Source: Escherichia phage vB_EcoS_Zar3M. Taken from it: a stretch of 45,901 nt of DNA. Made by a program: the position numbers and the translations under genes. Positions within the stretch are counted from its first letter, which is position 1; each line of letters begins with the position of its first letter. The notes below the pieces were generated by a model, which was not told the DNA's origin, did no database searches, and saw only the letters and a list, made by a program, of their open reading frames with translations. Where the stretch lies: the sequence record NC_073065.1; one strand, given 5' to 3'. This document shows positions 1-27,231 of this stretch, piece by piece.

Positions 1-101
1 CAGCAGATAGCGATCAACTTTTTCATGCGCGTGATTAATATTGGTTGCATTCGGCCTGGCACCCTGCTATTTTGGTTGCACACCAACATGAGGACTGAAC
101 A

Positions 102-407
102 ATGAAAGCGGTTATCTGGAATTACGCAATGTCTGTGGCTAAGCTGTACGAAGCAAAACACACAAACGGCAACGCAGACGACGCGCGCCAGGCTGTCATC
201 CTGGCCCAGCAGGGAATCATGAACGCGTTAGACAATATGTTTGCCAGCCTGGACGAACTGGAGCCGCTGCGCGTGGCAATCCAGGACTACGCGCTTGCAT
301 TTGCCCGTGAGCGCCTGGCGTATCGCTTCGGGATCGGTGAGACGGCTGTGACGAACATCGCCCGGATTAAAGCCCAGCGCGAACTATTCGCCCAGCTTGC
401 TAAATAA
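102..407 (+). CDS. hypothetical protein (101 aa)
   Basis: Intact ORF with ATG start ~25 nt downstream of two ATTGGTTGCA motifs (41-49, 72-80); protein-like composition; no recognisable motif. Confidence 0.45.
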   Translation: MKAVIWNYAMSVAKLYEAKHTNGNADDARQAVILAQQGIMNALDNMFASLDELEPLRVAIQDYALAFARERLAYRFGIGETAVTNIARIKAQRELFAQLAK

Positions 408-416
408 GGGGTCAAA

Positions 417-686
417 ATGGGGCGTAGACGAGCAAAACAGCTTTCGTGGCGTATCCCACTGCATTGCATACGAATATGGGCTAAGAATGCGAATGCGGGG
501 GATTCTGTGTACTGGTGCTATCGCGACGACGTAAAGCCGTTGACGCAGACTCGCTACTTGCACCAGTTCGCAGCACAACACGATTTCAGGGTGCGGACTT
601 CCTTGCAACCAATGGGGATCCGTATTACATTACGCCGGAAGCCCGCCATTGAGCGGGTAGGCAAACACTGGAGACTGAGCAAATGA
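417..686 (+). CDS. hypothetical basic protein (89 aa)
   Basis: ORF with AAGGGG Shine-Dalgarno ahead of ATG; Arg/Lys-rich; function unknown. Confidence 0.4.
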   Translation: MGRRRAKQLSWRIPLHCIRIWAKNANAGDSVYWCYRDDVKPLTQTRYLHQFAAQHDFRVRTSLQPMGIRITLRRKPAIERVGKHWRLSK

Positions 687-835
687 CACCAATGCAAAGA
701 GCACTAATGGCGGGATTCTCGCAGAAGTTTATTTCAGTAGACGCCTGCATAGCTGATTATGAGATGGACAGCATCGCTACGGTATGCGATGGCGACTATA
801 AGACTGTTGACGAGATTGAGGAGACTGAGCAATGA
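683..835 (+). CDS. small hypothetical protein (50 aa)
   Basis: Unlisted short ORF; ATGA start/stop overlaps with both neighbours (683 and 832), same GGAGACTGAGCAA context before each start. Confidence 0.3.
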   Translation: MTPMQRALMAGFSQKFISVDACIADYEMDSIATVCDGDYKTVDEIEETEQ

Positions 836-1386
836 AATTACTATTCCGCCGCAAATCAGACGGCAAAATCCTTAGACCAATACAGACCCTTGTGGCACAC
901 GTCCGCTTGCACCACGCCGCGAGTGATCGGGTTTGGTGGGCAGTGAAGGGCAAAGTGCCGGAGAAATACGATATTGTCACGCATGATATCGAGCGCGGCG
1001 ATGTGCTGCGTGATATTCGCGACGGGCAGTTGTGGATCGTCGAGTATGTCGGGCTTCATGGCCTGCGTATGAAAACCGCAAGGATGCTCGCCGGTATGAC
1101 TTACTTCGGCCTTGTCAACTACGAGCGAGTAGGCCGCAAATACTGCATTCGTGACCGCCAGCCGCATGCGCGCGTGGAGTTCCGCAAGTCGCAGCCCGCC
1201 TATGCCACCTACGACGCGAGCAAAGTTATGGATCCGATCCGCCAGGCGACGCATGAGATTATTAATCGCTTCGATGCCGTGACGAACGCACAGCGCCAGG
1301 CGCGGGAATACGGCGTCGGGTTTATCCGTGTCGAACCAGACGGCAGCATGAAGGCCATCGACCCGCGCTCGGTGATTCTGAAATGA
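832..1386 (+). CDS. hypothetical protein (184 aa)
   Basis: ORF coupled to upstream gene by ATGA overlap; antisense ORF 856..1632 has non-protein-like composition. Confidence 0.5.
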   Translation: MKLLFRRKSDGKILRPIQTLVAHVRLHHAASDRVWWAVKGKVPEKYDIVTHDIERGDVLRDIRDGQLWIVEYVGLHGLRMKTARMLAGMTYFGLVNYERVGRKYCIRDRQPHARVEFRKSQPAYATYDASKVMDPIRQATHEIINRFDAVTNAQRQAREYGVGFIRVEPDGSMKAIDPRSVILK

Positions 1387-1507
1387 ATAAATGCATTNGT
1401 GATATGCTTCAGCATAACCGCTTTGAGATAGGCGGTCGGGTGTTTCGCAATTACTTCGTGGCGCGTGCATGGGCGCGCCATATTGGCAAACCAGAGGGGG
1501 CAATACG

Positions 1508-1795
1508 ATGCTACACGATTTGATATATTGGTTTGGATTGGCCAGTTGGCTATGCTTGGTCACGGCAGGGCTTGGCGCGATATGGGTATTCCTGATTTGG
1601 CCAGCGGTGGAAGCCGCCAGCATTACCCGCATGACGTTTCAGATATACAAGCGCCGTGGCATCACGGAGCACCCGACCAGGTTGCGCATGTGGTGGCTAT
1701 GGTATCGGGATATGATAGGGGGCAGGATGTTCGAGGCCGTCCGGTCGACGGGATGGGAGTGGAAAGGCGTCGGCAAGTGGTCCATTTTCGATTAA
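1508..1795 (+). CDS. small membrane protein (95 aa)
   Basis: Internal ATG at 1508 preceded by GAGGGGG; N-terminal hydrophobic stretch LIYWFGLASWLCLVTAGLGAIWVFLIW predicts a TM helix. Confidence 0.4.
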   Translation: MLHDLIYWFGLASWLCLVTAGLGAIWVFLIWPAVEAASITRMTFQIYKRRGITEHPTRLRMWWLWYRDMIGGRMFEAVRSTGWEWKGVGKWSIFD

Positions 1796-1812
1796 TTATG
1801 CAAGCGTGATAT

Positions 1813-1847
1813 AGTCCCAGTGAGCTAAAACTTACTGGGACTTTTTT
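1813..1847 (+). terminator. intrinsic terminator-like hairpin abutting holin start
   Basis: AGTCCCAGT-12 nt loop-ACTGGGACT (9-bp stem) followed by TTTTTT, then ATG at 1848. Confidence 0.5.
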
Positions 1848-2138
1848 ATGGATAAGATAAACGAGTGGCTATTTGCCATCNCATNTNTGGNTGGCGGCTT
1901 NGTNGGCGCNCNCATTCNTGGNGNGGCNACGAAAGGGCCNCNAAACTTNGTTTTATATATCGTGGTNGGCTTCCTGTGCGCCATATTTGGTGCGCCAGCT
2001 ATCGCCGAGTGGGCTGGCTTATCTGGCGAGCGCACTGTCGCCGGTTTGGGCTTCGTAACTGCAATCTTCTGGATGCCAATAGCCGCCCGGATCAGGGAGA
2101 CTATTGAGTCGTTCCGACTTCCGGGGGGCGCAAAATGA
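1848..2138 (+). CDS. putative holin
   Basis: Small protein with hydrophobic segments (VLYIV.GFLCAIFGAPAIAEW, GLGFVTAIFWMPIAA) and charged C-terminus, directly upstream of endolysin; contains n-masked bases. Confidence 0.5.
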   Translation: MDKINEWLFAIXXXXGGXXGXXIXXXXTKGXXNXVLYIVXGFLCAIFGAPAIAEWAGLSGERTVAGLGFVTAIFWMPIAARIRETIESFRLPGGAK

Positions 2139-2380
2139 TTATCTCCGTCCTGTTGTTTGTTATCATAGGGGCTTCGTCCCTGTTTAACGTGTATGCGCCG
2201 TCCGTCCAGGATGGCATTTTAGGCCGGGTGTTATATCTGCTAACGGCGATGATCTGCGTTATCGGATTGTTGCAAACGGGAGACGTATCAGACACCACCT
2301 GGACCGCGTTAATCTGGCTGTTTGCATTGCGCACGCTGCGTAATGCTGTTTTGAATGGGGTAAAACATGCGATTCAGTGA
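2135..2380 (+). CDS. small membrane protein (second holin/antiholin candidate)
   Basis: 81 aa, 2-3 predicted TM segments (MIISVLLFVIIGASSLF, VLYLLTAMICVIGLL, ALIWLFAL); ATGA overlap with holin and overlaps endolysin start. Confidence 0.45.
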   Translation: MIISVLLFVIIGASSLFNVYAPSVQDGILGRVLYLLTAMICVIGLLQTGDVSDTTWTALIWLFALRTLRNAVLNGVKHAIQ

Positions 2381-2858
2381 CAACGGTCTACGATTTACGG
2401 CAGCATGGGAGACGTTCAGCCCGATGCCGTATTTCGCGACTAAGAAAGAGCAGGCCCGCGGCCTGTACACCTGGGGTTATGGTCACACCGGAACTAACCC
2501 GCCTCGAAGCATTACCCGCGCGGAAGCGCTGGAGCTACTCAAGCGTGACGTGGCGTATGCTGAGAACTGGGTGAACAAGTACGCACATCCGAGCATCAAC
2601 CAGGCGCAATTCGACGCGCTGGTGGACCTGGTAATCAATGCGGGTCAGGGTCCGATCGTACCGGACCATATCGCTAATGACTTCGATGATGCAGTGCGAC
2701 TGGGCGACTGGGCGAAGGTCCGTGCTACTCTGCCGCAGTTCCGCAAGCAAGGCGGGGAAGTGCTTAAGGGTCTGGTCCGTCGAGCAATCGGCAGACAAGC
2801 GCTATTCGATGGTAAGCAGTGGGACGTTGCCGAGAAGATCGGACGTAACGCAGCATAA
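2367..2858 (+). CDS. endolysin, lysozyme (glycoside hydrolase family 24-like)
   Basis: N-terminal GLRFTAAWE(T)FSPMPY with catalytic Glu context and TWGYGHTG, typical of phage T4/lambda-type lysozymes; located in lysis cluster. Confidence 0.8.
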   Translation: MRFSDNGLRFTAAWETFSPMPYFATKKEQARGLYTWGYGHTGTNPPRSITRAEALELLKRDVAYAENWVNKYAHPSINQAQFDALVDLVINAGQGPIVPDHIANDFDDAVRLGDWAKVRATLPQFRKQGGEVLKGLVRRAIGRQALFDGKQWDVAEKIGRNAA

Positions 2859-2874
2859 TACGGGGTAACACAGT

Positions 2875-3288
2875 ATGTTAAAAAGTATTCTTGATCATAA
2901 CGCCGACGCGCTCGCCGCGCTGGCTAAAACCGAAGACCCAGGCGCACGCGCTATTGTAGCGGATACGATCAGCCATGCGGGGGTATTCGACGCGAAGCTG
3001 CCTAGCCCGCCGGAAAGTNANCCGGTGACAAGCGCCACCGTAACCATCACACCGGAATCCGCCGCAGTTGGTGCGAAGGCCACCGCTTCGGTTGAGGTCC
3101 AGCCACCCGACGCGACTAACAAGGCCGGGAAGTGGGTGTCGTCGAATCCCGCCTGCGCGGCAATCGATCAGACTACCGGCGAAATCACAGCCCAAACGGC
3201 GGGTAGCGCCCACATCTTTTGGGTGGCCTCAGATGGTAGCGGGGCGATGGCGTCCGCCATCTTCACCGTAACGGGGGCGGAAGAATAA
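2875..3288 (+). CDS. bacterial Ig-like (Big_2-type) domain protein
   Basis: Ser/Thr/Ala-rich beta-type sequence ...VTITPESAAVGAKATASVEVQPPDATNKAGKWVSSNPACAAIDQTTGEITAQTAGSAHIF... resembling Big_2 domains; no TM or lipobox. Confidence 0.45.
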   Translation: MLKSILDHNADALAALAKTEDPGARAIVADTISHAGVFDAKLPSPPESXPVTSATVTITPESAAVGAKATASVEVQPPDATNKAGKWVSSNPACAAIDQTTGEITAQTAGSAHIFWVASDGSGAMASAIFTVTGAEE

Positions 3289-3384
3289 ATCTACCACCGC
3301 GGTTAATTCCGGGCTTTTTATTGCTTGACTTGCAACCAACATAGAGGCCATACTGCGACCAATCAACGAGAGGAGTAGTAAACT

Positions 3385-3465
3385 ATGGCACGTAATGATA
3401 TTTGGGTTTTGGCGATCTGGACCACCGCAGCATTCATTGGCATGGTTATTTGCGAATTGCTATAA
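3385..3465 (+). CDS. small hydrophobic peptide (26 aa) upstream of phosphoesterase
   Basis: Unlisted ORF MARNDIWVLAIWTTAAFIGMVICELL with strong GAGGAG RBS; followed by GGGACCG...CGGTCCC hairpin (3479-3506). Confidence 0.3.
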   Translation: MARNDIWVLAIWTTAAFIGMVICELL

Positions 3466-3526
3466 CCCGCCACAATAGGGACCGTGGTATATTGTCCTCG
3501 GTCCCATAATCAGGAAGTGGATTAAT

Positions 3527-4669
3527 ATGCACCCGCAAACTAAAATCACCGACGAGCAATTGATCGCCGAGTTGCAATCCGGCNCNNCCNCGAAANANAT
3601 TGCGAANAANTANGGTNTTTCCCNCCNAAATGTCTACATGCNAAAANCCCNCCTGTCGAANAAAGGTNTTGGTCNCGGNAANGANGCCGTAANCCGNAAG
3701 CGNGTTGCNGNNGGNTTNGGNGTTAAGNGTGTCNCCNCCCTGGNGNGNGGAAANGGNGAAGAGGTCATGTNGNGGGTTATCACTGAGCAGGACAAGGAGC
3801 GCCAGCTTGAGGCAATGCGCGCCGTTGTCGAGGGTATGAACAGCGAAATCAAACCGGCAGCACCCGTAAGCGCCCCGCCGGTCCCGATCCATGCGCTCGA
3901 CCTACTCAACCTGTACACCGTGTCCGACTTCCACCTGGGCATGTTGGCCTGGGGCGAGGAGACTGGCGAAGACTGGGATATGGCGATTGCCGAAGACCTG
4001 TTCTACCGCTGGTTTGTCGAAGCCTTCGCACGCGCACCGGACGCAGGCACTGCCGTAATTAATATCCTCGGTGATATGGCCCACTTTGATAGCCTCGATG
4101 CCGTCACTCCCGCCAGCGGTCACGTACTGGACGCGGATACCCGCTACCAGAAACTGGTCCGATACATGATTCGCATGGTGCGCAACGTGGTAGACCTGGC
4201 GCTGCAGAAACACCACAAAGTCAAACTGCTAATCGTCCAGGGGAATCATGACGAGTCGGGCATGATTTGGCTGGCTGAAATGTTCCATACTCTGTACGAG
4301 AACGAGCCACGCGTCGATGTGGATACGTCCCCGGACGTATACAAAATGGTGCAGCACGGCAAGACCACGCTGTTCTTCCACCACGGGCACAAAGCGCGCT
4401 TCGATGCCATCGAAACCGTCATGATTTCAAAATTCAGACAGGCTTTCGGGTCCAGCGAGTACAGCTACGCGCATGTAGGCCACTTGCACCACCAGAAGAT
4501 TGTAGAATCCCGCAACATGATTGTTGAACAACACCGGACCCTCGCAGCGAAAGACGCATATGCCAGCCGCGGCGGTTGGATGTCCGGTCGTAGTGCCAAC
4601 GTAATCACCTATAGCGCCAACTACGGCGAAGTAGCGCGCCTGACCATTAGCCCGGAAATGTTGAAATGA
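3527..4669 (+). CDS. metallophosphoesterase (calcineurin-like) with N-terminal HTH-like extension
   Basis: Calcineurin-type motif series DFHLG, GDMAH, QGNHDE, HHGH, GHLHH; N-terminal ~60 aa (ITDEQLIAELQSG...) looks like a helix-turn-helix; n-masked patch 3586-3775. Confidence 0.7.
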   Translation: MHPQTKITDEQLIAELQSGXXXKXIAXXXGXSXXNVYMXKXXLSXKGXGXXXXAVXXKXVXXXXXVKXVXXLXXGXXEEVMXXVITEQDKERQLEAMRAVVEGMNSEIKPAAPVSAPPVPIHALDLLNLYTVSDFHLGMLAWGEETGEDWDMAIAEDLFYRWFVEAFARAPDAGTAVINILGDMAHFDSLDAVTPASGHVLDADTRYQKLVRYMIRMVRNVVDLALQKHHKVKLLIVQGNHDESGMIWLAEMFHTLYENEPRVDVDTSPDVYKMVQHGKTTLFFHHGHKARFDAIETVMISKFRQAFGSSEYSYAHVGHLHHQKIVESRNMIVEQHRTLAAKDAYASRGGWMSGRSANVITYSANYGEVARLTISPEMLK

Positions 4670-4923
4670 TTAGACAAGTATTCATGAGCACGCAGGCGGA
4701 CCGCCTGAAGGAACTACGCAAACAACTGGAAGGATTGCGCCGATTCGAACGAACGGCAGCGGCAATCGGCATGTCTATCAGCGAGCGGATCGAGATACTA
4801 TCGCAAATACGCTACACAGAAGGCGCTATACGCGAAGTAGAAAGCATGTTAACCGATACTACGGTCGCGCCGTTTAACCCTCCTAGCCCGCCGATTTGGT
4901 GGGCTTTTTTGTGCCTGTTATAA
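4666..4923 (+). CDS. hypothetical protein (85 aa)
   Basis: ORF starting by ATGA overlap with phosphoesterase stop; alternative start at internal Met (MSTQADRL...); predicted helical. Confidence 0.4.
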   Translation: MIRQVFMSTQADRLKELRKQLEGLRRFERTAAAIGMSISERIEILSQIRYTEGAIREVESMLTDTTVAPFNPPSPPIWWAFLCLL

Positions 4924-4993
4924 TCCCCTTAGATGGCAGGGCCGTCTCCTATGTTGCCGATGGTCGGCGCATATGCACAAAAGGGCTTATATC

Positions 4994-5545
4994 ATGGCAG
5001 AAATCAAAGTTAAGGGCCGTCGCGCTAAACTGGACGGACGAGTAGCAGTTACCCCGCGCCGTAAACCAGGCGAGCAAACAGAACATACCAATCTCGGGCC
5101 GGAGATCGAATACGGCAAGCGCCGCAGAGGTGGCAAATGTGGACGCCCTACCGACTACCGTTCCGTGTATTGTGACCAACTTCGACGCTATTTCGCCGAT
5201 GCCGTAGCCTGGCAAGTTAACTACTCCGACAAGGGTGCTGCGCAAGTAATTCCCCGCAACATGATGCCTACCTTTGGTCGCTTCGCCGCAAAGATTGGCG
5301 TAGGCGTCGCATGCCTTTATCGCTGGGCGCGCGCACATGAGGAGTTCGCCGAGGCAATGGCTGACGCTATGGAGCTACAGAAAACCTTCCTGATGGAAGC
5401 TGGCGGCGTGACCATCGCGGCGGGCTTCGCTACCTTCCTGCTTAAAGCCAACCACGGCGTCCGGGACGATGTACCGCTGGATGACGACGAAGATGATAAC
5501 GGCGACGTCGTTGTGGAACCTACCGGCAAAGGTCAGGGTGATTAA
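4994..5545 (+). CDS. terminase small subunit (putative)
   Basis: Directly upstream of and overlapping terminase large subunit (TAATG); basic N-terminus, HTH-like segment RFAAKIGVGVACLYRWARAHEEF, acidic C-terminal tail. Confidence 0.55.
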   Translation: MAEIKVKGRRAKLDGRVAVTPRRKPGEQTEHTNLGPEIEYGKRRRGGKCGRPTDYRSVYCDQLRRYFADAVAWQVNYSDKGAAQVIPRNMMPTFGRFAAKIGVGVACLYRWARAHEEFAEAMADAMELQKTFLMEAGGVTIAAGFATFLLKANHGVRDDVPLDDDEDDNGDVVVEPTGKGQGD

Positions 5546-6930
5546 TGCGTAACTATGCGGCAGAACATCGCGCCCTTGAACGAGCGATCGCAAAGCGAAA
5601 CAGACCGCCGCGCCCGACACGCGTTGCGCAGGCCGTCCGCCTTTACCAGCCTGATTGCCTTCCGCACCAGGTGGAACTACTGCGCGACACGAAGACTAAA
5701 ATCATCGGCCTGTGTTCCGGCTTCGGTGGCGGTAAGTCATGGGTCGCGGCGAGAAAGGTCATCCAGCTTTTAACACTAAACCCCGGTCATGATGGCATCG
5801 TAACAGAACCGACTATTCCCCTCCTGGTTAAAATCATGTACCCGGAATTGGAAAAGGCATTCGACGAGGCGGGCTTCAGGNGGAAGTTTAACAAGCAGGA
5901 CAAGATTTATAGCGTGCTGGTGAAAGGCAAGTGGACGCGCGTAATCTGTGAGTCAATGGAAAACTACACCCGCCTAATCGGGGTCAACGCCGCGNGGNTT
6001 GTTGCCGATGAGTTNGATACCACNAAACAAGACGTCGCAATGGNGGCTTACCACAAATTGCTTGGTNGTCTGNGTGCTGGNTTGGTGCGCCAGTTCGTCA
6101 TCGTGTCCACGCCTGAAGGCTTCCGGGCGATGTATCAGATTTTCGAAGTGGAGAAGGATAGCCAAAAACGTTTGATCCGGGCGAAGACTACCGATAATCA
6201 CCACTTACCGGCAGACTTTATCGACACTCTGCGCAGCCAGTACCCTGCTAACCTGATTGATGCGTACCTGAACGGTATGTTTGTCAACCTTACGTCGGGC
6301 GCGGTATACAAGATGTTCAATCGTGAGGAGAACGCCAGCACCGAAGAAGTGCAGCCGGAAGACACGCTGATTATCGGGATGGACTTTAACGTCACGAAAA
6401 TGGCGGCGGTCGTGTACGTCAGACGGCAGCGCATCACCGAAAACAAGGAGTTCCGCGACGAGATTCACGCAGTGGATGAATTCGTGGACCTGTTCGATAC
6501 CCCGGCTATGATTGAGGCGATCGAGGAGCGCTACCCCGATCATTGTGCTGCCGGTCGGGTCGTCGTTTACCCGGATAGCAGTGGCAAGTCTCGTAAGACT
6601 GTTAACGCATCGTCGTCCGATATAGCGCAACTGGAAGACGCAGGCTTCGAGGTGGAATACGACAGCGTTAACCCACCTGTGAAAGACCGATTGATCGCGA
6701 TGAATACGATGATGTGCAACTCGAAGGGCGTGCGCCAGTATTTTGTCAACCTGGATAAATGCCCTACACTAGCGAAATGTCTGGAACAGCAGGTTTACGA
6801 CCTGAAGAAAGGCGAGCCGGATAAAACCGCCGGTGTGGACCACATGAACGATGCCGCGGGTTATCCAATTGCGCACCTGTTCCCAGTGATTCGTCCGATC
6901 GCCGTTGTTCCAACTGTAGACTTCTACTAA
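5545..6930 (+). CDS. terminase large subunit
   Basis: Walker A GFGGGKS, Walker B-like VADE, C-terminal nuclease-type region; position between small subunit and portal. Confidence 0.85.
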   Translation: MRNYAAEHRALERAIAKRNRPPRPTRVAQAVRLYQPDCLPHQVELLRDTKTKIIGLCSGFGGGKSWVAARKVIQLLTLNPGHDGIVTEPTIPLLVKIMYPELEKAFDEAGFRXKFNKQDKIYSVLVKGKWTRVICESMENYTRLIGVNAAXXVADEXDTXKQDVAMXAYHKLLGXLXAXLVRQFVIVSTPEGFRAMYQIFEVEKDSQKRLIRAKTTDNHHLPADFIDTLRSQYPANLIDAYLNGMFVNLTSGAVYKMFNREENASTEEVQPEDTLIIGMDFNVTKMAAVVYVRRQRITENKEFRDEIHAVDEFVDLFDTPAMIEAIEERYPDHCAAGRVVVYPDSSGKSRKTVNASSSDIAQLEDAGFEVEYDSVNPPVKDRLIAMNTMMCNSKGVRQYFVNLDKCPTLAKCLEQQVYDLKKGEPDKTAGVDHMNDAAGYPIAHLFPVIRPIAVVPTVDFY

Positions 6931-6940
6931 GGAAACGACC

Positions 6941-8461
6941 ATGACCGTTAACGTTGACAACCAGCACCCGCTCTATGCGCGCATCGCGCCCGAGTGGAAA
7001 ATGATCCGTGACTGTGTAGCGGGGGAGCGCGCCGTTAAGGCGTGCGGCCCCTTATACCTGCCACACCCAGCCAGTGGCGACAACACTGACCCGAAATCAC
7101 GGGCGCGGTATAAGGCGTACAAGCAACGCGCTGTATTCCTGAACGCCACCGCCCGCACACTTAACGCGCTGTTAGGCGTTGCCTTTGCTAAACCGGTGAG
7201 TCTTGACCTTTCCGGGGCGATGGCTGACCTGATTGACGACGTAGACGGCAGCGGTATGCCGCTGCCGCAACTCCTGCGCGGTGCTATGTCTGAAGTTCTG
7301 CAATCAGGCCGTGCGGGCTTTATGGTCGACTACGACCGTCAGGCGCATTTTGATGAACTGGGTAACGTAGTGCCGCAGACAGCCGCCGAGATGGCGTCAC
7401 ACCGCCCGCTTATCCGCCTGTACACGGCAGAACAGATCATCAACTGGCGGCAGACCCACGGCGTCGATACGCTAATTGTGCTGAAGGAAACGGACGAAAT
7501 CAGCACTGAAGACCCGGACGACTTCGCAAACCACGAAGTAACAATCTGGACCGAGCTTCGCATGATTAACGGTGCAGCACACGCCCGCCGCTGGTACTAC
7601 AACGCCGACACGTCCGAGGTGCAAATGGACTTGCCGCGTGGATTCACCCGCACCGACCTGGTGCCGCTGGTGGATGCTACCGGTAAGGCGCTGACACAAC
7701 TTCCGTTTTGCTGGTGTGGCGCGGTGGACAACAACGCAACGCCAGACGCCGCTCCGCTGGCAGATATCGCATCCATCAACATTAAGCACTACAACGCCGA
7801 AGCGGACGTCGCCGAGATTGCGCACATCGTGGGCCAACCTACCCTGGTAGCAACTGGCTTGACTCAATCATGGGCGGACAAAAACCTGAAAGGCGGCATC
7901 GCGCTCGGAGCGACTAAGGGCGTTATTCTGGGTCAGAACATGGACGCTAAACTGATTCAGGCCGAGGAGCGCAACTTGTCGGTCGCACTGTGTGAGCGAC
8001 GCGAATTGCAAATGGCTAAACTTGGCGCGGCCCTGGTCGAGAAGGGGACCGCACCTAAGACGGCAACCGAGGCGGCCTATGATGCGCAGACTGATAACAG
8101 TATCCTGTCGCTTATTGCCGGTAACGTTGAGAAGGCTTTCAACCGCGCGTTGCAAATTGTCCAACTATTCACGGGCGACACCGCCGACCAGCGCGTAACG
8201 CTGAATAAGTTCTACACAGAAATCACGGTTGATGCGCAGCTTATGACCGCGATGATGTCGGGTGTGCAGACTGGCACGGTCCGCCTGGCGGATTTCATCA
8301 AGTGGATGATGGCGCAGGGCGTCATCGACGACTCGCAAACCGTCGAGCAGGTGGAAGACGAATTGCGAAATCAGAATCCATTGCCTCAAATGTCCCCCGA
8401 TGCGGTAGAATCTACCGAAGAAGACCCGGACAAGGTAGCGGACAATGGCGAAGACAATTAA
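6941..8461 (+). CDS. portal protein
   Basis: 506-aa protein immediately after terminase, acidic C-terminus; portal-like size and position. Confidence 0.75.
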   Translation: MTVNVDNQHPLYARIAPEWKMIRDCVAGERAVKACGPLYLPHPASGDNTDPKSRARYKAYKQRAVFLNATARTLNALLGVAFAKPVSLDLSGAMADLIDDVDGSGMPLPQLLRGAMSEVLQSGRAGFMVDYDRQAHFDELGNVVPQTAAEMASHRPLIRLYTAEQIINWRQTHGVDTLIVLKETDEISTEDPDDFANHEVTIWTELRMINGAAHARRWYYNADTSEVQMDLPRGFTRTDLVPLVDATGKALTQLPFCWCGAVDNNATPDAAPLADIASINIKHYNAEADVAEIAHIVGQPTLVATGLTQSWADKNLKGGIALGATKGVILGQNMDAKLIQAEERNLSVALCERRELQMAKLGAALVEKGTAPKTATEAAYDAQTDNSILSLIAGNVEKAFNRALQIVQLFTGDTADQRVTLNKFYTEITVDAQLMTAMMSGVQTGTVRLADFIKWMMAQGVIDDSQTVEQVEDELRNQNPLPQMSPDAVESTEEDPDKVADNGEDN

Positions 8462-9548
8462 TCAATATATGGCGGATCGCATGATCCGCCGTCACATCTT
8501 CACCCAGCGCCTGAGCAATGACCAGGCGCGGAGGGTGCTGGCTATGTGGGAGAAGTTCCGGCCCGCTTTACTGGGTAAGTTGACCGAGTTACTTGATGGG
8601 AAAAAGTCCATGAGCAACAAGGCACTTACCACACTTTTAACGCAACTCGACAAGACCGTCAAAACGGAACTGCGCACCGAGTTTAAGGCGCTGGCTGAAA
8701 GCCTTCAGGAGTTCGCCGACACCGAGGCTGATTATCTTGCCGATACATTAACGGCGGCGATCCAGCCCGCGGTCGCCGTGCCGGCTGTCGAGGTGGTGGG
8801 TATTGTGACCGGCGCGCAGATCGCAGCGACTGCAATGAAAAACCCGTTCCAGGGTAATACGATGATGCAATGGCCTGACTCACTTTCCGAGTGGACCCGG
8901 ACGCAGATCGGCAATCAGGTGCGCGCTGGATTCATCCAGGGCAAGCCGACGATGGAAATTATTGCGGACGTGAGGCGCGCGCTCGGCGGTCGTAGTGCGC
9001 AAGCAATCTCAAGCGTTGTTAAGTCCGCGGTCAACCACTATGCGGCGACCGCCCGCGAATTAATGGTAAAAGCTAATGACGATATTCTCGAAGGTCGCCA
9101 ATGGTTGGCTACATTGGACACGCATACTTCTCCCATGTGCCAGCTACGCGATCGCCTGTTTTATCCGGTTGATGTTACTCCAGACACCAAAGGCAAGCGC
9201 GGCGGGAAAGTGGTGGCGGGATCACAATATGGCGCTGGTCCGGGCAAGCTGCATTATTGCTGCCGTTCGACGGAGACGTGGAAAGTCAAAGGTATGGAAG
9301 ATTGGCCCAGTGGTAAGCGTCCGGCACTGAAGGCTGACGCAGGCAGATTGCTGAGTGAGCAGGTCGACGCGCAGACTGATTTCTTCTCATGGGTGCAGCG
9401 CCAGCCGCGCCATATTCTGGAGGAACTATATGGGGTGCAGCGCGCAGACCAGATTATGCGAGGCGTGAAAGTGCCGAAGATGTTCACCGATACGGGCGAA
9501 CTAATGACTATTGCGCAGCTTAAAAACAGGGGGCTATGGCGTGATTAA
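8445..9548 (+). CDS. head morphogenesis protein (Mu F / SPP1 gp7-like minor head protein)
   Basis: 367 aa following portal with overlapping start; conserved-looking segment ...WLATLDTHTSPMCQLRD... typical of Mu F-like proteins. Confidence 0.7.
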   Translation: MAKTINQYMADRMIRRHIFTQRLSNDQARRVLAMWEKFRPALLGKLTELLDGKKSMSNKALTTLLTQLDKTVKTELRTEFKALAESLQEFADTEADYLADTLTAAIQPAVAVPAVEVVGIVTGAQIAATAMKNPFQGNTMMQWPDSLSEWTRTQIGNQVRAGFIQGKPTMEIIADVRRALGGRSAQAISSVVKSAVNHYAATARELMVKANDDILEGRQWLATLDTHTSPMCQLRDRLFYPVDVTPDTKGKRGGKVVAGSQYGAGPGKLHYCCRSTETWKVKGMEDWPSGKRPALKADAGRLLSEQVDAQTDFFSWVQRQPRHILEELYGVQRADQIMRGVKVPKMFTDTGELMTIAQLKNRGLWRD

Positions 9549-9870
9549 ATACGCGGCGATCGGACTGGTTATAGGTCTGGCAGTTGGATTCTGGCAGGGT
9601 GATTCCTACCGCGCAGGCGTAGTGGNGGNGGNGGCGCAANAAGNGCAAGCCCAANCCCAACGGCAGCAAANTAAAGTTGTGGAGCGCTCCGTGCAGGCCG
9701 AACAGGCCCGCGACGTGGAATACCGGACTATCACGAAAGAGGTTGTTAAATATGTTACGCGCCCTAACCGCCCTGATTGTAGTTTTGATGCTGAGCGCGT
9801 GCGGATCAAGCAGCGTGCCGTTGATGCCGCTAACGGAGTCGGCACTGCGACCGCCGTGCAAGTTCGATAA
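9541..9870 (+). CDS. i-spanin (Rz-like)
   Basis: GTG start after ACAGGGGG; N-terminal TM (IKYAAIGLVIGLAVGFW) followed by charged coiled-coil-like periplasmic region; contains an embedded +1-frame lipoprotein gene. Confidence 0.55.
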   Translation: MIKYAAIGLVIGLAVGFWQGDSYRAGVVXXXAQXXQAQXQRQQXKVVERSVQAEQARDVEYRTITKEVVKYVTRPNRPDCSFDAERVRIKQRAVDAANGVGTATAVQVR

Positions 9871-9982
9871 CCCGTCTGCGGACCCCGACGAAGATTTGAT
9901 GATTGACGTGAAAAATATGGAATGCGGGGCGAAGCTGAGGGCGCAAGTGCTGGATTTGCAGAAAATAATTCTGGGGCCGTGA
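9752..9982 (+). CDS. o-spanin (Rz1-like outer-membrane lipoprotein)
   Basis: ATG inside Rz in another frame; signal peptide plus lipobox LSAC (MLRALTALIVVLMLSACGSS), Pro-rich mature part; extends past Rz stop. Confidence 0.55.
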   Translation: MLRALTALIVVLMLSACGSSSVPLMPLTESALRPPCKFDNPSADPDEDLMIDVKNMECGAKLRAQVLDLQKIILGP

Positions 9983-9997
9983 TGGCCCCCTTTTATT
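9974..9997. terminator. bidirectional intrinsic terminator
   Basis: GGGGCC-GTGAT-GGCCCC followed by TTTTATT on + strand and AT-rich tail on - strand; lies between convergent Rz1 (+) and 9996..10760 (-). Confidence 0.6.
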
Positions 9998-10760
9998 AGC
10001 GCGGAATACCGCAGATTTCGTTTAACGTCTTCACGTCCAGCGCCACCGCCGTGGACTTCGGCTTATCCGGGTATGGAATAAACTGTTCAACTTCAGGCCA
10101 CGCCTTGATCAGCTTCTTATCGGTATTGTGCATATCAAGCACGCCGGTAACGGTTAGTTTGAACGCGTCATACTTAGCACGCAACTCACGTCGGGCATTG
10201 TCGTTACGGTCCAGGCGCTTGCAGAAATCATGATCCGCCGGGAAATCCGCACGACAGCGCGGCTTATAGATCGGCAGCGCTTTCCCATCCTCGTCCACTT
10301 CGCACACAGAAGCCAGCATTACTTCTTCGAACCCAGGTACAATATCGCCGAGATCGGGAGATAGCTTATTCATGTATTTATATTCCCAGTATCCGCGATG
10401 TACTCGGTATTGTCGTCCGTCACCGCTCAATGACAGTGTGCGCACATTTCCGCCTGCGTTGATTTCGAAAGTGGCGTCGTAAACGCTGCCGATGCCTTTT
10501 GGGCGGTCAGCGTTATAACTATACGTCGCCTTGTTGGTGTATACGCTTACTCCGTACATCTGCGACGGGTCGTCGCCGATTGCTTTAATGCGCGCGAGTA
10601 GCTCGGCGAAAGTGCGAATGCCTTCCGGCATACAGTCCAGCGTAATGGCGTACGCCAGGTCGCGCGAGTCCATCATGATGGATTTGGCTTCGGTCGCGAT
10701 TTCATGGTCGCGCAGGATGTTAGCCAGGATCAGGTTTTTAATGTCTTTTGTCAGTCTCAT
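9996..10760 (-). CDS. hypothetical protein (254 aa), reverse-strand moron gene
   Basis: Intact ORF on opposite strand inside late structural operon; protein-like composition; no motif I can name. Confidence 0.5.
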   Translation of the reverse strand: MRLTKDIKNLILANILRDHEIATEAKSIMMDSRDLAYAITLDCMPEGIRTFAELLARIKAIGDDPSQMYGVSVYTNKATYSYNADRPKGIGSVYDATFEINAGGNVRTLSLSGDGRQYRVHRGYWEYKYMNKLSPDLGDIVPGFEEVMLASVCEVDEDGKALPIYKPRCRADFPADHDFCKRLDRNDNARRELRAKYDAFKLTVTGVLDMHNTDKKLIKAWPEVEQFIPYPDKPKSTAVALDVKTLNEICGIPR

Positions 10761-10803
10761 TTTTGTGTCCTCGTTGTTGGGGCTTTCGCCCCGTTTGGTT
10801 TAG

Positions 10804-11211
10804 TTAAAGTGCTTCTAGAATCTCGTAAAACTTATTTGCCAGCGCTTGGCGGCGTTCGAATTTTTCAGTGATAACCAATTCCGGGCGGTTAAATAGCTTT
10901 GCGTGGGTGTTCCAATTGAGGATTTCCGTTTCCATTATTTTCTTCCGGTTGTAGTCGGTGTTTTTGATGCTAAATTCCTTGATAGCGTCATTAAGAAAAT
11001 CAGTCATACACTCAACGTCTGTTCTCTTAACTTCGAACGTACGGGCCTCGATTGGGCTATTTGTGCGAAGTACGACGACTCCGCCGTGGTAGGTGTCGAC
11101 TACCATATACTTATAAGTCACCCCATCCCACTCCGGATCGAAAGGGCGCCCAAATACGTCGTCGGCTTTCCACACTTTCTGGTACGGTGTTTCTTTGATT
11201 AATGTTGGCAT
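10804..11211 (-). CDS. hypothetical protein (135 aa), reverse-strand moron gene
   Basis: Intact ORF with ATG at 11211 preceded by AAGGAAAAACAAAATG; upstream promoter-like element containing ATTGGTTGCAC-TATATT. Confidence 0.5.
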   Translation of the reverse strand: MPTLIKETPYQKVWKADDVFGRPFDPEWDGVTYKYMVVDTYHGGVVVLRTNSPIEARTFEVKRTDVECMTDFLNDAIKEFSIKNTDYNRKKIMETEILNWNTHAKLFNRPELVITEKFERRQALANKFYEILEAL

Positions 11212-11212
11212 T

Positions 11213-11300
11213 TTGTTTTTCCTTCATGTCTCTGTTGGTGTGCAACCAATATAGTGCAACCAATACGCGGATTGCAAGCGAATTTTGCGATTATTTTTAT
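11213..11300 (-). promoter_or_regulatory. promoter-like element with tandem ATTGGTTGCAC motifs and conserved 40-bp box
   Basis: On - strand reads CTTGCAA-N8-ATTGGTTGCAC-TATATT-ATTGGTTGCACACC; shares ATAGTGCAACCAAT and TGCAAG(C/T)GAATTTTGC with 30281-30320. Confidence 0.4.
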
Positions 11301-11367
11301 CGCTGATAATATTAGAAGCGTGAAGTCGAGCGGGTGGCCTGCTCTGCCACAATCCCAGGGGGATAGC

Positions 11368-12072
11368 ATGAAACTTACTAAAGCAGAATATGACGCGTTG
11401 CCGGAAGGTATGAAGGCGCTTTTTGTTGCCGATGGCGACGGGTATAAATCAACGTTCATGACCGCAGAAGAAGTACAGGCGGAAATCAAGGGTCTGAAAG
11501 ACAACAACGCTAAGCTGGTGAGCGAGAAGAAAGCANAAGCNGAACCCCNCCCNNAAGGGGNGNGCCTNGNNAAANANAAANAGGAAGCCNCCNCNCNCAA
11601 AAACGGNGACCTCGAAGCGATCGATAAGTCCTGGAAGGATAAGTTTGCGAAACACGAAGCAGATACATCGGGAAAAATCGAAGCCTACCGCAAGCAGATC
11701 CACGACCTAACCATCGGCAGCGCTGCCAAAGACCTGGCATCGAAGCTATTCGGTAAGAATGCGGGAATAATGCAACGTCACGTTATGGATCGCCTCACTC
11801 TGGAGGACGGCGAAGACGGCAGCTTGAAAGTGCGTGTCTTGCAGGATGGCAAACCGTCCGCGCTGACTATGGAAGAGCTTGAAAAAGAGTTCCGTAATAA
11901 CGCCGATTTTGCATCCGTTCTGGCTGGCACGCCAGCCGGTGGCGCGCCTAGCAAACCGACGCAGGTTGTCGAAGATGTGAAGTCGAAAATCACTATGGGC
12001 CATAGCTTCGGTATCACTGACCTTACGAAACAGGCGGGGGATATCATCGCGAAGATGGGCGACGACGAGTAA
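11368..12072 (+). CDS. scaffolding protein (putative)
   Basis: ATG at 11368 with GGGGGA RBS; charged, helical, low-complexity protein immediately upstream of major capsid gene. Confidence 0.55.
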   Translation: MKLTKAEYDALPEGMKALFVADGDGYKSTFMTAEEVQAEIKGLKDNNAKLVSEKKAXXEPXXXGXXXXKXKXEAXXXKNXDLEAIDKSWKDKFAKHEADTSGKIEAYRKQIHDLTIGSAAKDLASKLFGKNAGIMQRHVMDRLTLEDGEDGSLKVRVLQDGKPSALTMEELEKEFRNNADFASVLAGTPAGGAPSKPTQVVEDVKSKITMGHSFGITDLTKQAGDIIAKMGDDE

Positions 12073-17218: not shown

Positions 17219-19861
17219 ATGGCAGATCAAGCGGCAGGCATCACGCTGAAGGCTGATGTTGCACAAATCAGAACGGCAAATACTGTGCTGGACTCCTTCG
17301 CACAGAAATCCGAGAACACAGAAAACAAGGTTAAGAAATTAAACGACACCCTCGGCAAATCCAAAAAGGTGACGAGTGACGCCGCGGGCGGAATGGAGAA
17401 GCTCGCGACTGAATCGCAGCGCGCAGCCGATGGNANGACAAAACAGGNGCGNCTTGCCAACAGGTTAGGCATGTCGACCAAAAACCTGGGCTTTGCCTCG
17501 CGTAACGCCGCATTCCAGTTACAGGATATCGCAGTTACGCTTGAGATGGGGATGCCTGTTCACCGCGTCATGCTTCAGCAGTTACCGCAGCTAACTGGGG
17601 CGTTCGGCGGACTGGGTAACACGCTGCGTTTTGTTGCGGGCTTCCTCGGCCCAGTAGGGGTCGGCCTTGCCGCCGTAACGGCAACGTTAGGCGTGGGCGT
17701 GGCAATTACGTCCCGCGCGGAGAACCAGATCGCCNCGCTTAACAAGACGCTGGCACTTTCCGGTAACATTTCCGGCCTGACGGCAAACCAGATCCTGGTG
17801 CTATCTGAGAACGCCGNGCGCNNGGGNGGGNNGTTCCGCAANANGNGNGACACAANCCNGGCGNNGGNGGNGGNGGGTGTGAAAGNGGGNGGNGACTTCG
17901 GCGCACTGGNGAAAGTGGTGAATGACTTTGCGAAGGTGTCCAGCCAGCCGATCGAGGATGTGGTCGCGGCGGTGGCGAAGCTGTCAACCGACCCGGTAGG
18001 CGGCTTGCGAGCATTGGCTGATAAGTATCACGTCGTAAACGAAGCGCAGATCCAGCAGGTGCAGTCGCTTGTGGATATGGGTCGCGAGACAGACGCGGTT
18101 GCGTTGGCTAACAAAACCGCCGCAGCGTCGTTTACGACTATGACCAACGATATTAAGTCCAACATGGGTACGCTTGAGCGTTCGATGAACGTAGTCACAT
18201 CGGCAGCGAAATCCATGTGGGATGCCATCCTGGATGTTGGACGCGCGCAGTCCTCGAATGAGTCCGAGATGAAAGCGCGTGAGTCATTGCAGCGACTGAC
18301 CACGGCTTACTATGCCGAGATGAAAGCGGTAAACGCTGCCGGTGGGGTGATGACCGAAGCGCAGAAAGCGCGTATTAACATGCTTTACAGCGAACTGGTC
18401 GCCCAGGAGAAGGTGGTGGCGTCGCTCACCCTGCGCAACCGTGCCGAGCGGGACAACNCCCGCCCCNGGGAANAAGNNNNAAAGGNGAANGAANAGGCAA
18501 ACCNCACCGCCCGCNNCCNCGCCGCGTTTGNGAAGGAGTACGCAACCAACGCGAAGCGGCGAGCCGACGAGATCGCCCGCCTCAATTTGCTGAATAAGCG
18601 CGGTGTTATTAACGAGAAAGAGCTTGCCGAGGCGGTGAAGCAGGTAAACGAGCGTTACAAAGACCCCGCCCCGAAGAAGGCCGCCGCTGTTCGAGTCGAT
18701 GCCGGGCTGAAAATGCTGGAAGTCGCGCGAAGCGAATTAGCCCAGCTTCGTGAGTCTGGAAAGCAGATCGAAGCCAACTCTTCGACGCAGACCCGCACGC
18801 AACGCGCGCAAGCGGCCCTTAACAAGCTGATTGCCGACAACGAGCAGTTAATCGCTGCGAGCAAAGAAAGGGCGCTGACGGCAGCAGAGAAGCAGCAAAT
18901 GGTCGGGTTCGGAGGCGTTAAATCTGTACGCGAGCAGATCGTCGAAGAAGCCAAATTGCTGGACGCGAAAGAGAAGCAGGTCAAGGCGCACGCGCAGATC
19001 GACGCCTTCGTTAAGAACCAGAACGCCGAGCTAAAAGCCACCGCGGCGGGCTATGCGCTTTCCACTCGCGAAGCGGCTAACCTGCGCGAAGAATTGCAGC
19101 TAATTGACCGCCTTAAGCGGGTGGGCGCTAGTGATACCGATATTGATCTGGCGGTGTCTAAGCTGCGCGAAGTGCAGGAAGCACAGACCGGTGCTAACGC
19201 CTCGCTATGGGATGGATTAAGCCGCGGGCTTAAGGATAGCGTTGATGAAATGGGTAACGGCTATACGCAGATGGCGTCACTAACAAAATTCACGTTCGGC
19301 GCTATGCAGGACACGATGAACGAGTTTTTCGAGACTGGCAAGCTGAACGCAAAGGATATGGTTAAGTCCATCCTGAGCGAATTAATCAAGCTGGCTACAT
19401 CGCAGGCGTTCAAGTCCATCGTTAGCGCTTTNGGNGGNGNNGGNGGAAAAAANGGNTTNTTNGGNGNTNTNTTNNCCNGCCNGACTAANAANGNGGNNGG
19501 NGGNGNGNNCGNNGGGGGNAATCTCGCGGCCTNTTNGGGGNAAGTGGTAAGCCNNCCTNCCTTTTTNNGTTNCGGNGTCCNGGNGTTCGCTAAGGGTGCT
19601 GGATTGATGGGGGAGGCTGGACCCGAGGCCATCATGCCGCTGAAGCGCGGGCCAGACGGTAAACTGGGAGTTGCCGCTGCCGGTGGGGTCGGTGGGATGA
19701 TTGTAACGACCAACGTTAATATGGGTACCGGTAAGACGGATACCAGTGTGAGCGGACCGGACCCACGCACCGCGCAGGCGTTCGGAAAGCAAATCACCGA
19801 GTCGGTCAAGGCCGAGATTGTGAAGGCGACGAAACCGGGTGGTGTACTTTACAAACNATGA
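17219..19861 (+). CDS. tape measure protein
   Basis: 880-aa helical Ala/Gln/Lys-rich protein with Gly-rich hydrophobic C-terminal region; downstream of G/GT. Confidence 0.85.
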   Translation: MADQAAGITLKADVAQIRTANTVLDSFAQKSENTENKVKKLNDTLGKSKKVTSDAAGGMEKLATESQRAADXXTKQXXLANRLGMSTKNLGFASRNAAFQLQDIAVTLEMGMPVHRVMLQQLPQLTGAFGGLGNTLRFVAGFLGPVGVGLAAVTATLGVGVAITSRAENQIAXLNKTLALSGNISGLTANQILVLSENAXRXXGXFRXXXDTXXAXXXXGVKXXXDFGALXKVVNDFAKVSSQPIEDVVAAVAKLSTDPVGGLRALADKYHVVNEAQIQQVQSLVDMGRETDAVALANKTAAASFTTMTNDIKSNMGTLERSMNVVTSAAKSMWDAILDVGRAQSSNESEMKARESLQRLTTAYYAEMKAVNAAGGVMTEAQKARINMLYSELVAQEKVVASLTLRNRAERDNXRPXEXXXKXXEXANXTARXXAAFXKEYATNAKRRADEIARLNLLNKRGVINEKELAEAVKQVNERYKDPAPKKAAAVRVDAGLKMLEVARSELAQLRESGKQIEANSSTQTRTQRAQAALNKLIADNEQLIAASKERALTAAEKQQMVGFGGVKSVREQIVEEAKLLDAKEKQVKAHAQIDAFVKNQNAELKATAAGYALSTREAANLREELQLIDRLKRVGASDTDIDLAVSKLREVQEAQTGANASLWDGLSRGLKDSVDEMGNGYTQMASLTKFTFGAMQDTMNEFFETGKLNAKDMVKSILSELIKLATSQAFKSIVSAXXXXXGKXXXXXXXXXXXTXXXXXXXXXGXNLAAXXGXVVSXPXFXXXXVXXFAKGAGLMGEAGPEAIMPLKRGPDGKLGVAAAGGVGGMIVTTNVNMGTGKTDTSVSGPDPRTAQAFGKQITESVKAEIVKATKPGGVLYKX

Positions 19862-26690: not shown

Positions 26691-26969
26691 TTACCCCCAA
26701 TACGTATATATAAATCTTGATTCGCCAGCGTTAAAGCCGCTCCAGGAGACAGTGTTGTCGCTTACGGATATTGATGGCGCACCCCAAGATGTGCCGTTCC
26801 AGGTATGCGTACCAACGTAACCTGCCTTTAAACTTTTCCCCGGCGGACGGTTGTGATACGTCTTGCTCCCGGATGGTTGTGTGAATTTGTCAAGAAAAAA
26901 AACCGGCGTTAACAGGCCTGTGACGTCACGACCATGTTCGTCATAAATCGCGTACCCATAGTTACTCAT
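26691..26969 (-). CDS. hypothetical protein (92 aa)
   Basis: ATG at 26969 preceded by GGAG; 8-nt ATGAGTAA overlap with lipoprotein gene stop. Confidence 0.4.
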   Translation of the reverse strand: MSNYGYAIYDEHGRDVTGLLTPVFFLDKFTQPSGSKTYHNRPPGKSLKAGYVGTHTWNGTSWGAPSISVSDNTVSWSGFNAGESRFIYTYWG

Positions 26970-27231
26970 TTCTACACTCCACAATTTCAAATTTATCTTC
27001 GCTTTGCCATCTGTGAACGAAAGTTACAAATTTCTGTGATGGGGCTACTCGGTATTGTTTTTCGCCAAATCGGTTTTCACGCACCGCGTTTAGTTTAACA
27101 GGGTAGCTATCGTTTACGGGGAATGTTTTAACCGCATATTGGCCTACGCAATCGATAGCCTTGTAGTTGCCGTCTGGCGATGCGGAGCAACCGGACAAAA
27201 GAACCGCACAAATCATAATTAAAGTTTTCAT
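26962..27231 (-). CDS. small outer-membrane lipoprotein (Cor/Llp-like superinfection exclusion candidate)
   Basis: ATG at 27231 with AGGAG RBS; signal peptide plus lipobox MKTLIMICAVLLSGCSASP; divergent from tail fibre gene. Confidence 0.55.
   Translation of the reverse strand: MKTLIMICAVLLSGCSASPDGNYKAIDCVGQYAVKTFPVNDSYPVKLNAVRENRFGEKQYRVAPSQKFVTFVHRWQSEDKFEIVECRNE

Follow-up and report, generated by a model that had tools for sequence, protein, structure and literature searches.

Lysis genes of Escherichia phage vB_EcoS_Zar3M predicted at two loci, a layout common to Dhillonvirus

The genome of Escherichia phage vB_EcoS_Zar3M (NC_073065.1; 45,901 nucleotides (nt), one strand read 5' to 3' and referred to here in its full length as the window) very probably has the usual Dhillonvirus lysis system of four functions, with its genes at two loci. 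Two holin candidates and a GH24 endolysin lie at the left end, upstream of the terminase genes, and an Rz/Rz1-like pair of an inner-membrane spanin (i-spanin) and an outer-membrane spanin (o-spanin) occupies positions 9541 to 9982, beginning 6,682 nt downstream of the endolysin. The original prediction, made from the letters of this DNA, had proposed this holin and endolysin cluster, which is borne out by PHROG and Pfam matches, as well as a spanin pair about 6.7 kb from the endolysin and after the head morphogenesis gene, which the measured distance, the PHROG matches and the lipobox of the second gene confirm. The window is a Dhillonvirus genome (an HK578-like E. coli siphovirus), colinear, coordinate for coordinate, with that of vB_EcoS_PTXU06 (MK373789). 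The split layout is not new: it is the usual one in the HK578-like phages of Dhillonvirus. The gene identities, topology signals, conservation and synteny given below come directly from our analysis.

The candidate i-spanin gene (9541..9870, + strand) encodes 109 amino acids and matches phrog_2536, 'Rz-like spanin', with an E-value of 1.2e-34. Residues 1 to 17 of the product (MIKYAAIGLVIGLAVGF), with Lys3 on the N-terminal side, form its sole hydrophobic segment, with the membrane anchor placed at residues 1-18; the mean hydropathy of this anchor is 2.05, 1.95 and 1.52 in windows of 15, 17 and 19 residues, respectively. The periplasmic domain contains a single cysteine, C80, and the motif EVVKY..P.R..C.FD..RV.K is common to the i-spanins of Dhillonvirus, Kagunavirus and Cornellvirus. 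The gene begins with a GTG codon located 8 nt inside the 3' end of the head morphogenesis gene (stop at 9548), with a GGGGG Shine-Dalgarno sequence upstream. The codon at this position is GTG in seven of eight Dhillonvirus genomes, the window included, and ATG in phage L-h 1M. Since the codon is kept as GTG or ATG, the start at 9541, which had been suggested to overlap the morphogenesis gene, is supported.

The o-spanin gene (9752..9982, + strand) lies in the +1 frame relative to the i-spanin gene and starts at an ATG behind an AAGAGG Shine-Dalgarno sequence. The two genes have 119 nt in common, which corresponds to the 'overlapped' architecture. The 76-residue precursor matches phrog_5672, 'Rz-like spanin' (E 7.3e-25), and phrog_1267 (E 3.7e-11), and is predicted to yield a mature lipoprotein of 60 residues. 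Its signal, MLRALTALIVVLMLSA-C17, comprises Arg3, a hydrophobic core and the lipobox L-S-A-C with a Gly at +2. As the +2 residue is not Asp, the Lol avoidance residue, the lipoprotein has the property required for sorting to the outer membrane. The mature part harbors seven prolines and two further cysteines, Cys36 and Cys58. The pair thus combines a single N-terminal anchor (N-in, C-out), a lipobox without Asp at +2, overlapping genes and periplasmic cysteines, as does a two-component spanin.

These features are conserved. Both spanin frames are open in eight Dhillonvirus genomes with 77-98% nucleotide identity (lowest 77.5%), and the o-spanin lipobox with Cys36 and Cys58 is kept in eight Dhillonviruses and in the Cornellvirus FSL SP-031. 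In alignments that include Kagunavirus and Cornellvirus homologues, C80 of the i-spanin and C36/C58 of the o-spanin are invariant and could form homotypic intermolecular disulfides in the periplasm. A tblastn search with the i-spanin hit 672 records; Kagunavirus, Cornellvirus and Jersey-like Salmonella phages are among them, with identities of about 33-35%, and K1H and FSL SP-031 match at 34-35% identity over 87% of the protein (E 4e-6 to 5e-7). The o-spanin is 35-39% identical to the Cornellvirus and Kagunavirus o-spanins (BLASTP E 4e-13 and 2e-15) and has a like cysteine pattern. Homology to the Jersey family phages HK578, SO-1, K1H and FSL SP-031 was found for both partners. The homology E-values and the conserved dual frames are well beyond chance and argue for the identification of the pair as spanins.

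At the left end, holin candidate 1 (1848..2138, + strand) encodes 96 amino acids with two to three hydrophobic segments, the transmembrane segments being placed at residues 34-52 and 64-82, and matches phrog_2359, 'holin' (E 3.3e-22). Holin candidate 2 (2135..2380, + strand; 81 amino acids, transmembrane segments at residues 1-19 and 28-46) matches phrog_2508, 'holin' (E 1.1e-26), and its gene overlaps those of holin 1 and the endolysin by 4 and 14 nt, respectively. The two are labelled 'holin-like class II' (holin 1) and 'holin-like class I' (holin 2) in L-h 1M. The Pfam search gave no match for either holin, so that their identification required the PHROGs. Just 5' of holin 1 and of the terminator that precedes it, an open reading frame (ORF) at 1469-1795 encodes 108 amino acids, with a hydrophobic stretch from residue 18 to 36 and a match to phrog_2531 (unknown function); the product may be a further membrane protein tied to the lysis region.

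The endolysin gene (2367..2858, + strand) encodes a 163-residue protein of the GH24 (T4 lysozyme) family. It matches the Pfam Phage_lysozyme model PF00959 over residues 14-139 with 75.6 bits, against a gathering cutoff of 22.3, and phrog_7, 'endolysin', with an E-value of 4.7e-35. It also aligns over its full length, from residue 3, with the solved endolysin 8HP8 (E 3.3e-31). In this alignment Glu15, in 'AAWE', corresponds to the Glu of 'AAFE' in 8HP8 and is the putative N-terminal catalytic Glu of the PF00959 domain. A hydropathy scan detected no hydrophobic segment in the protein, and hence neither a signal nor a signal-arrest-release segment. Because of this, and of the full-length alignment with 8HP8, it is predicted to be a soluble, holin-dependent, canonical GH24 endolysin. 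PTXU06 and L-h 1M annotate a truncated protein from a downstream ATG, equivalent to position 2424, which would lose Glu15. The Pfam match extends from residue 14 and the 8HP8 match, which includes Glu15, from residue 3, so that ATG 2367 is most likely the true start.

We then asked whether the window holds any other spanin. Every ATG, GTG and TTG start on both strands of the whole window was scanned for a lipobox behind a hydrophobic core. Within positions 1-12000, no candidate was recovered beyond 9752 and its TTG variant at 9743. Other ORFs with a lipobox were found at 37459 and 41133, both short and neither near the lysis genes, and at 26962-27231 on the minus strand. The last, the sole further gene that plausibly specifies a lipoprotein, encodes an 89-residue product (MKTLIMICAVLLSGC...) and was considered as a unimolecular spanin (u-spanin) of the T1 gp11 type, but was rejected on two grounds: it has no C-terminal hydrophobic segment, and it matches the Cor superinfection-exclusion family (phrog_1119, E 2.8e-07). 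A spanin gene next to the endolysin, which the original prediction had named as a finding that would speak against it, was absent both from the lipobox scan of 1-12000 and from what is annotated after the endolysin in 60 listed records, out of 155 that match this DNA. The gene that follows the endolysin encodes an immunoglobulin (Ig)-like protein instead, so the window does not have a contiguous cassette of the lambda type.

The Ig-like gene (2875..3288, + strand) occupies the place that Rz/Rz1 have in lambda, directly after the endolysin, and is the last gene before a gap. Its product matches Big_2 (PF02368, E 2.5e-10) and phrog_215, 'structural protein with Ig domain', and the first 48 residues have a match in phrog_11068, a family of unknown function. 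This protein was considered as an alternative disruptor of the outer membrane and was rejected, since it carries a Big_2 domain, has PHROG matches of the structural or decoration type, and lacks both a transmembrane segment and a lipobox to anchor it. It may be a Hoc-like decoration protein. We also rejected a gene concealed by undetermined bases, as relatives without such bases have the same ORFs and there are just two N between the endolysin and position 3526.

The biochemical roles of the four products, and the membrane-fusion step, would follow the lambda paradigm. The holin pair (1848-2380) would build up in the inner membrane and trigger the formation of holes, through which the soluble GH24 endolysin (2367-2858) would exit and degrade the peptidoglycan. 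The i-spanin, as a type II inner-membrane protein, and the o-spanin, as an outer-membrane lipoprotein, would pre-assemble and bridge the periplasm. The complexes would be threaded through the meshwork of the wall and held there as disulfide-linked homodimers until the wall is removed. With the wall gone, the spanin complex would fuse the outer to the inner membrane and thereby destroy the outer membrane, as shown for lambda Rz/Rz1. Because spanins act only after wall degradation and set no lysis timing, they should need no linkage to the holin and endolysin genes. By analogy with lambda, their place as the last genes of a late structural operon is expected to be functionally neutral, provided that they are made late.

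The spanin genes would be the final genes of a late unit comprising the terminase, portal and head morphogenesis genes, and the i-spanin is probably translationally coupled to the last of these. Hairpins at 1813-1842, 4885-4905 and 9973-9989 appear to delimit the transcription units. The first of them (1813..1842, + strand), annotated as a terminator in PTXU06, has a 12-bp stem followed by T6 (-19.8 kcal/mol, z -6.9) and suggests a 5' boundary of the lysis transcription unit. It ends 5 nt 5' of the holin 1 ATG, and this junction is kept in PTXU06 and L-h 1M. Since there is no room for a promoter before holin 1, the lysis genes must, judging from this arrangement, be read through the terminator. 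The only Shine-Dalgarno-like sequence for holin 1, GGGA at 1837-1840, sits in the 3' arm of the hairpin, which may therefore occlude the start region of this gene.

The GC-rich hairpin at 9973..9989, whose loop contains the o-spanin stop codon, would close the unit that runs from the terminase through the portal and morphogenesis genes to the spanins. It had been described as a bidirectional terminator. That it folds on both strands was confirmed (+ strand, -13.2 kcal/mol; - strand, -13.8 kcal/mol), but a U-tract directly follows the stem on the + strand only, the one on the - strand being interrupted. PTXU06 has a terminator annotated here, HK578 has one on each strand, and a convergent minus-strand gene ends at 9996; bidirectional termination at this site is plausible.

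A stronger reading of these elements would make them a regulatory device: a Dhillonvirus-specific fusion of the spanins to the end of a head gene, in which they start at GTG, overlap that gene by 8 nt and lack their own promoter, together with the 1813-1842 hairpin that covers the ribosome binding site of holin 1, would tie the dosage of the spanins to head-gene translation. We regard such a device as unlikely. If true, it would set lysis functions at the level of RNA and translation, unlike what has been described for lambda-like cassettes.

The two-locus organization is better understood as inherited synteny, which the sequence comparisons indicate is common to Dhillonvirus and, with homologous spanins, to Guernseyvirinae. 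The 442-nt spanin locus matched 156 phage records, and at least 80% of it is covered in 155 of these. In almost all of the 60 listed rows, the match additionally takes in part of a gene annotated as a head morphogenesis, capsid-and-scaffold or minor capsid protein. A megablast search with positions 1800-10000 returned 158 phage records, nearly all of them Escherichia or Shigella phages of Dhillonvirus, 94 with at least 80% query coverage; the closest in sequence are CEC_Kaz_2018 (98.5%) and L-h 1M (96.9%). The original prediction had taken the split to be uncommon. This does not hold for Dhillonvirus, given the coverage of the locus in these records, and the spanin genes of T4 and P1 are also unlinked. 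Two of the matching records, MG065648.1 ('Campylobacter phage A144') and OQ221563.1 ('Acinetobacter phage NJ01'), are 93% identical to the Dhillonvirus spanin locus; mislabelling of the host or contamination of the records is the probable cause.

The split had further been read as a sign of modular gene shuffling, and a recent rearrangement, for example a spanin pair transposed out of a lambda-like cassette, would indeed agree with two local features. The spanins stand at the end of an operon beside a variable minus-strand island, which contains an Nmad5 gene in the window and a different gene in SO-1, and the DNA just downstream of the endolysin is mosaic: the 3' part of 2859-3526 varies among Dhillonviruses, and at least 80% of this segment is covered in only 13 of 155 matching records. 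However, the spanins have the same position in 155 of 156 records, and spanins of 33-39% identity occupy the same interval, from head morphogenesis to scaffold, in two Guernseyvirinae genera, represented by Snoke and FSL SP-031. The GC content also runs smoothly at 9-10 kb (0.546, against 0.53-0.59 in the neighbouring bins). Any move of the spanins must thus predate the divergence of Dhillonvirus and these two genera, and a recent rearrangement is very improbable. Because homologous parts lie in the same interval across genera, the split layout appears to be older than the divergence of the Dhillonvirus and Guernseyvirinae genera.

The identification of the pair as spanins has to be weighed against several points. 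In the 19-residue window, the score of the i-spanin anchor is marginally below the threshold of 1.6, because residue 19 is a Gln. Pfam has no model that matches either protein, and a literature search found no experimental test of any Jersey-family spanin; the assigned function would thus follow from homology to a bioinformatically defined family and from topology signals. As for the transcriptional organization, the units proposed above are drawn entirely from hairpin scans, and a hairpin after 3288 that is annotated in PTXU06 is weak in the window (-5.8 kcal/mol, z -0.25). The Pfam and literature results leave some room for 9541-9982 to encode another pair of membrane protein and lipoprotein, for example a superinfection exclusion system or an accessory of virion assembly, with the outer membrane being disrupted by other means or not at all. 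The location of the genes among head genes would suit this, and phages do encode exclusion lipoproteins, including the Cor-like one at 26962-27231 of the window. Against it stands the full signature of a type II anchor, a lipobox without Asp at +2, a +1 overlap, conserved periplasmic cysteines and a proline-rich o-spanin (7 Pro), in addition to the strong PHROG spanin matches and the membership in a curated Jersey family. Moreover, the window offers no alternative, with no u-spanin-like lipoprotein that has a C-terminal anchor. We consider a function other than that of a spanin highly doubtful.

Between the two lysis loci, the Ig-like gene is followed by a phosphoesterase/exonuclease-like gene (3527-4669), the small (4973-5545) and large (5545-6930) terminase genes, the portal gene (6941-8461) and the head morphogenesis gene (8445..9548, + strand; phrog_241, E 8.9e-116), the stop of which overlaps the i-spanin start by the 8 nt noted above. 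On the other side of the spanins, between them and the scaffold gene, the island at 9996-11211 (minus strand) carries an Nmad5 gene (nucleotide modification associated domain 5; PF18757, E 2.2e-56) and a second, 135-residue ORF for which no PHROG match was obtained. The same spot is occupied in SO-1 by gp07, whose annotation reads RusA-like resolvase while a note calls it a putative DNA polymerase III beta subunit, by a sliding clamp gene in Snoke and by a PAPS reductase gene in FSL SP-031.

The record contains 577 N in 51 patches across the whole window, including 16 in holin 1, 7 in the i-spanin gene, 40 in 3584-3773 and 43 in 19432-19584. Relatives without N at the holin 1 and i-spanin sites have intact ORFs. 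In the two stretches that we aligned, the N sites mostly fall where PTXU06 and L-h 1M agree. The patches look like a matter of record quality (low-quality base calls or masking) and not like population variation.

The spanin genes of Dhillonvirus have been recognized to different degrees. HK578, SO-1, EP23, JL1, SSL-2009a and EK99P-1 are members of the 'Jersey' family of overlapped spanins (Kongari 2018, BMC Bioinformatics 19:326, PMC6139136). In HK578, SO-1, YD-2008.s, slur05, BMA1 and McMelon the locus bears the names i-spanin/o-spanin or Rz-like spanin, and spanins are also annotated in the BASEL phages GeorgBuechner, Oekolampad, PaulFeyerabend and KarlBarth. In PTXU06, L-h 1M and CEC_Kaz_2018, as in many Dhillonvirus records, the genes are still 'hypothetical'. 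The i-spanin coding sequence (9541-9870) is absent from the annotation of PTXU06, and in L-h 1M (10233-10674) and BEK2-2 the o-spanin is called as a truncated ORF of 52 amino acids that starts after the lipobox. The published genome description of the Dhillonvirus P78 lists holins (ORF31/32), an endolysin (ORF33) and a spanin (ORF40), and that of the Kagunavirus Golestan places lysis genes at ORF66-68 and at ORF7/8; both pass the distance without comment. The present case is an ordinary member of a heavily sampled genus, with a spanin pair that belongs to a curated family, and its value lies mainly in annotation. It also illustrates that spanin genes can be free of linkage to holin and endolysin, which fits spanins that act after the holin trigger without a role in timing.

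Within the Jersey family, the pair of the window is 92.7% identical in nucleotide sequence to that of HK578 and 83.6% to that of SO-1. A shorter subfamily, 'EP23 to SO-1', has been described, with two constant cysteines in the o-spanin and an i-spanin of two helices and one beta strand (Kongari 2018, PMC6139136). The window shares with it the +1 overlapped architecture, an i-spanin of 102-109 amino acids and conserved cysteines in both partners, and departs from it in no substantial way. The i-spanin measures 109 amino acids in the window, HK578, PTXU06 and L-h 1M, and 102 in SO-1, BEK2-2, GeorgBuechner and LM40P1.

The Guernseyvirinae offer a more distant comparison. The Center for Phage Technology annotation of the Kagunavirus Snoke puts both spanin genes in an interval with the capsid morphogenesis and decoration genes on one side and the scaffold gene on the other. 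In FSL SP-031 two holin genes and the endolysin gene are followed by small ORFs, then by the genes for terminase, portal, head morphogenesis and a Hoc-like protein, by the minus-strand insert, and finally by the spanins, the scaffold and the major head protein; Dhillonvirus has the same holin-holin-endolysin cluster upstream of the terminase. In both Guernseyvirinae the spanins come after the minus-strand insert, with an ATG and a Shine-Dalgarno sequence of their own, and head the scaffold-capsid unit, whereas in Dhillonvirus they come before the variable minus-strand insert and overlap the stop codon of the head morphogenesis gene. The two spanin genes of FSL SP-031 overlap by just 8 nt and are classed as 'separated' (Kongari 2018, PMC6139136).

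The S-R-Rz/Rz1 cassette of lambda has the same four functions as the window, with holin and endolysin just 5' of the terminase genes and the o-spanin in the +1 frame, and the mechanism is presumed to be the same. It differs in that Rz/Rz1 come right after the endolysin, with Rz1 fully embedded, whereas the pair of the window is overlapped and lies 6,682 nt away. Lambda has one dual-start holin gene and the window two holin genes; lambda R is a transglycosylase and the endolysin of the window belongs to the T4 lysozyme family.

T4 (pseT.3/pseT.2; Kongari 2018, PMC6139136) and P1 (mlp/ppfA; PMC9025707) likewise have spanin genes without linkage to holin and endolysin. In T4, unlike in the window, holin and endolysin are unlinked even from each other, and the spanin pair has the separated architecture. 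The spanin families of T4 and P1 are unrelated to that of the window, but, as predicted for the window, their spanin genes lie in a transcription unit other than that of the holin and endolysin.

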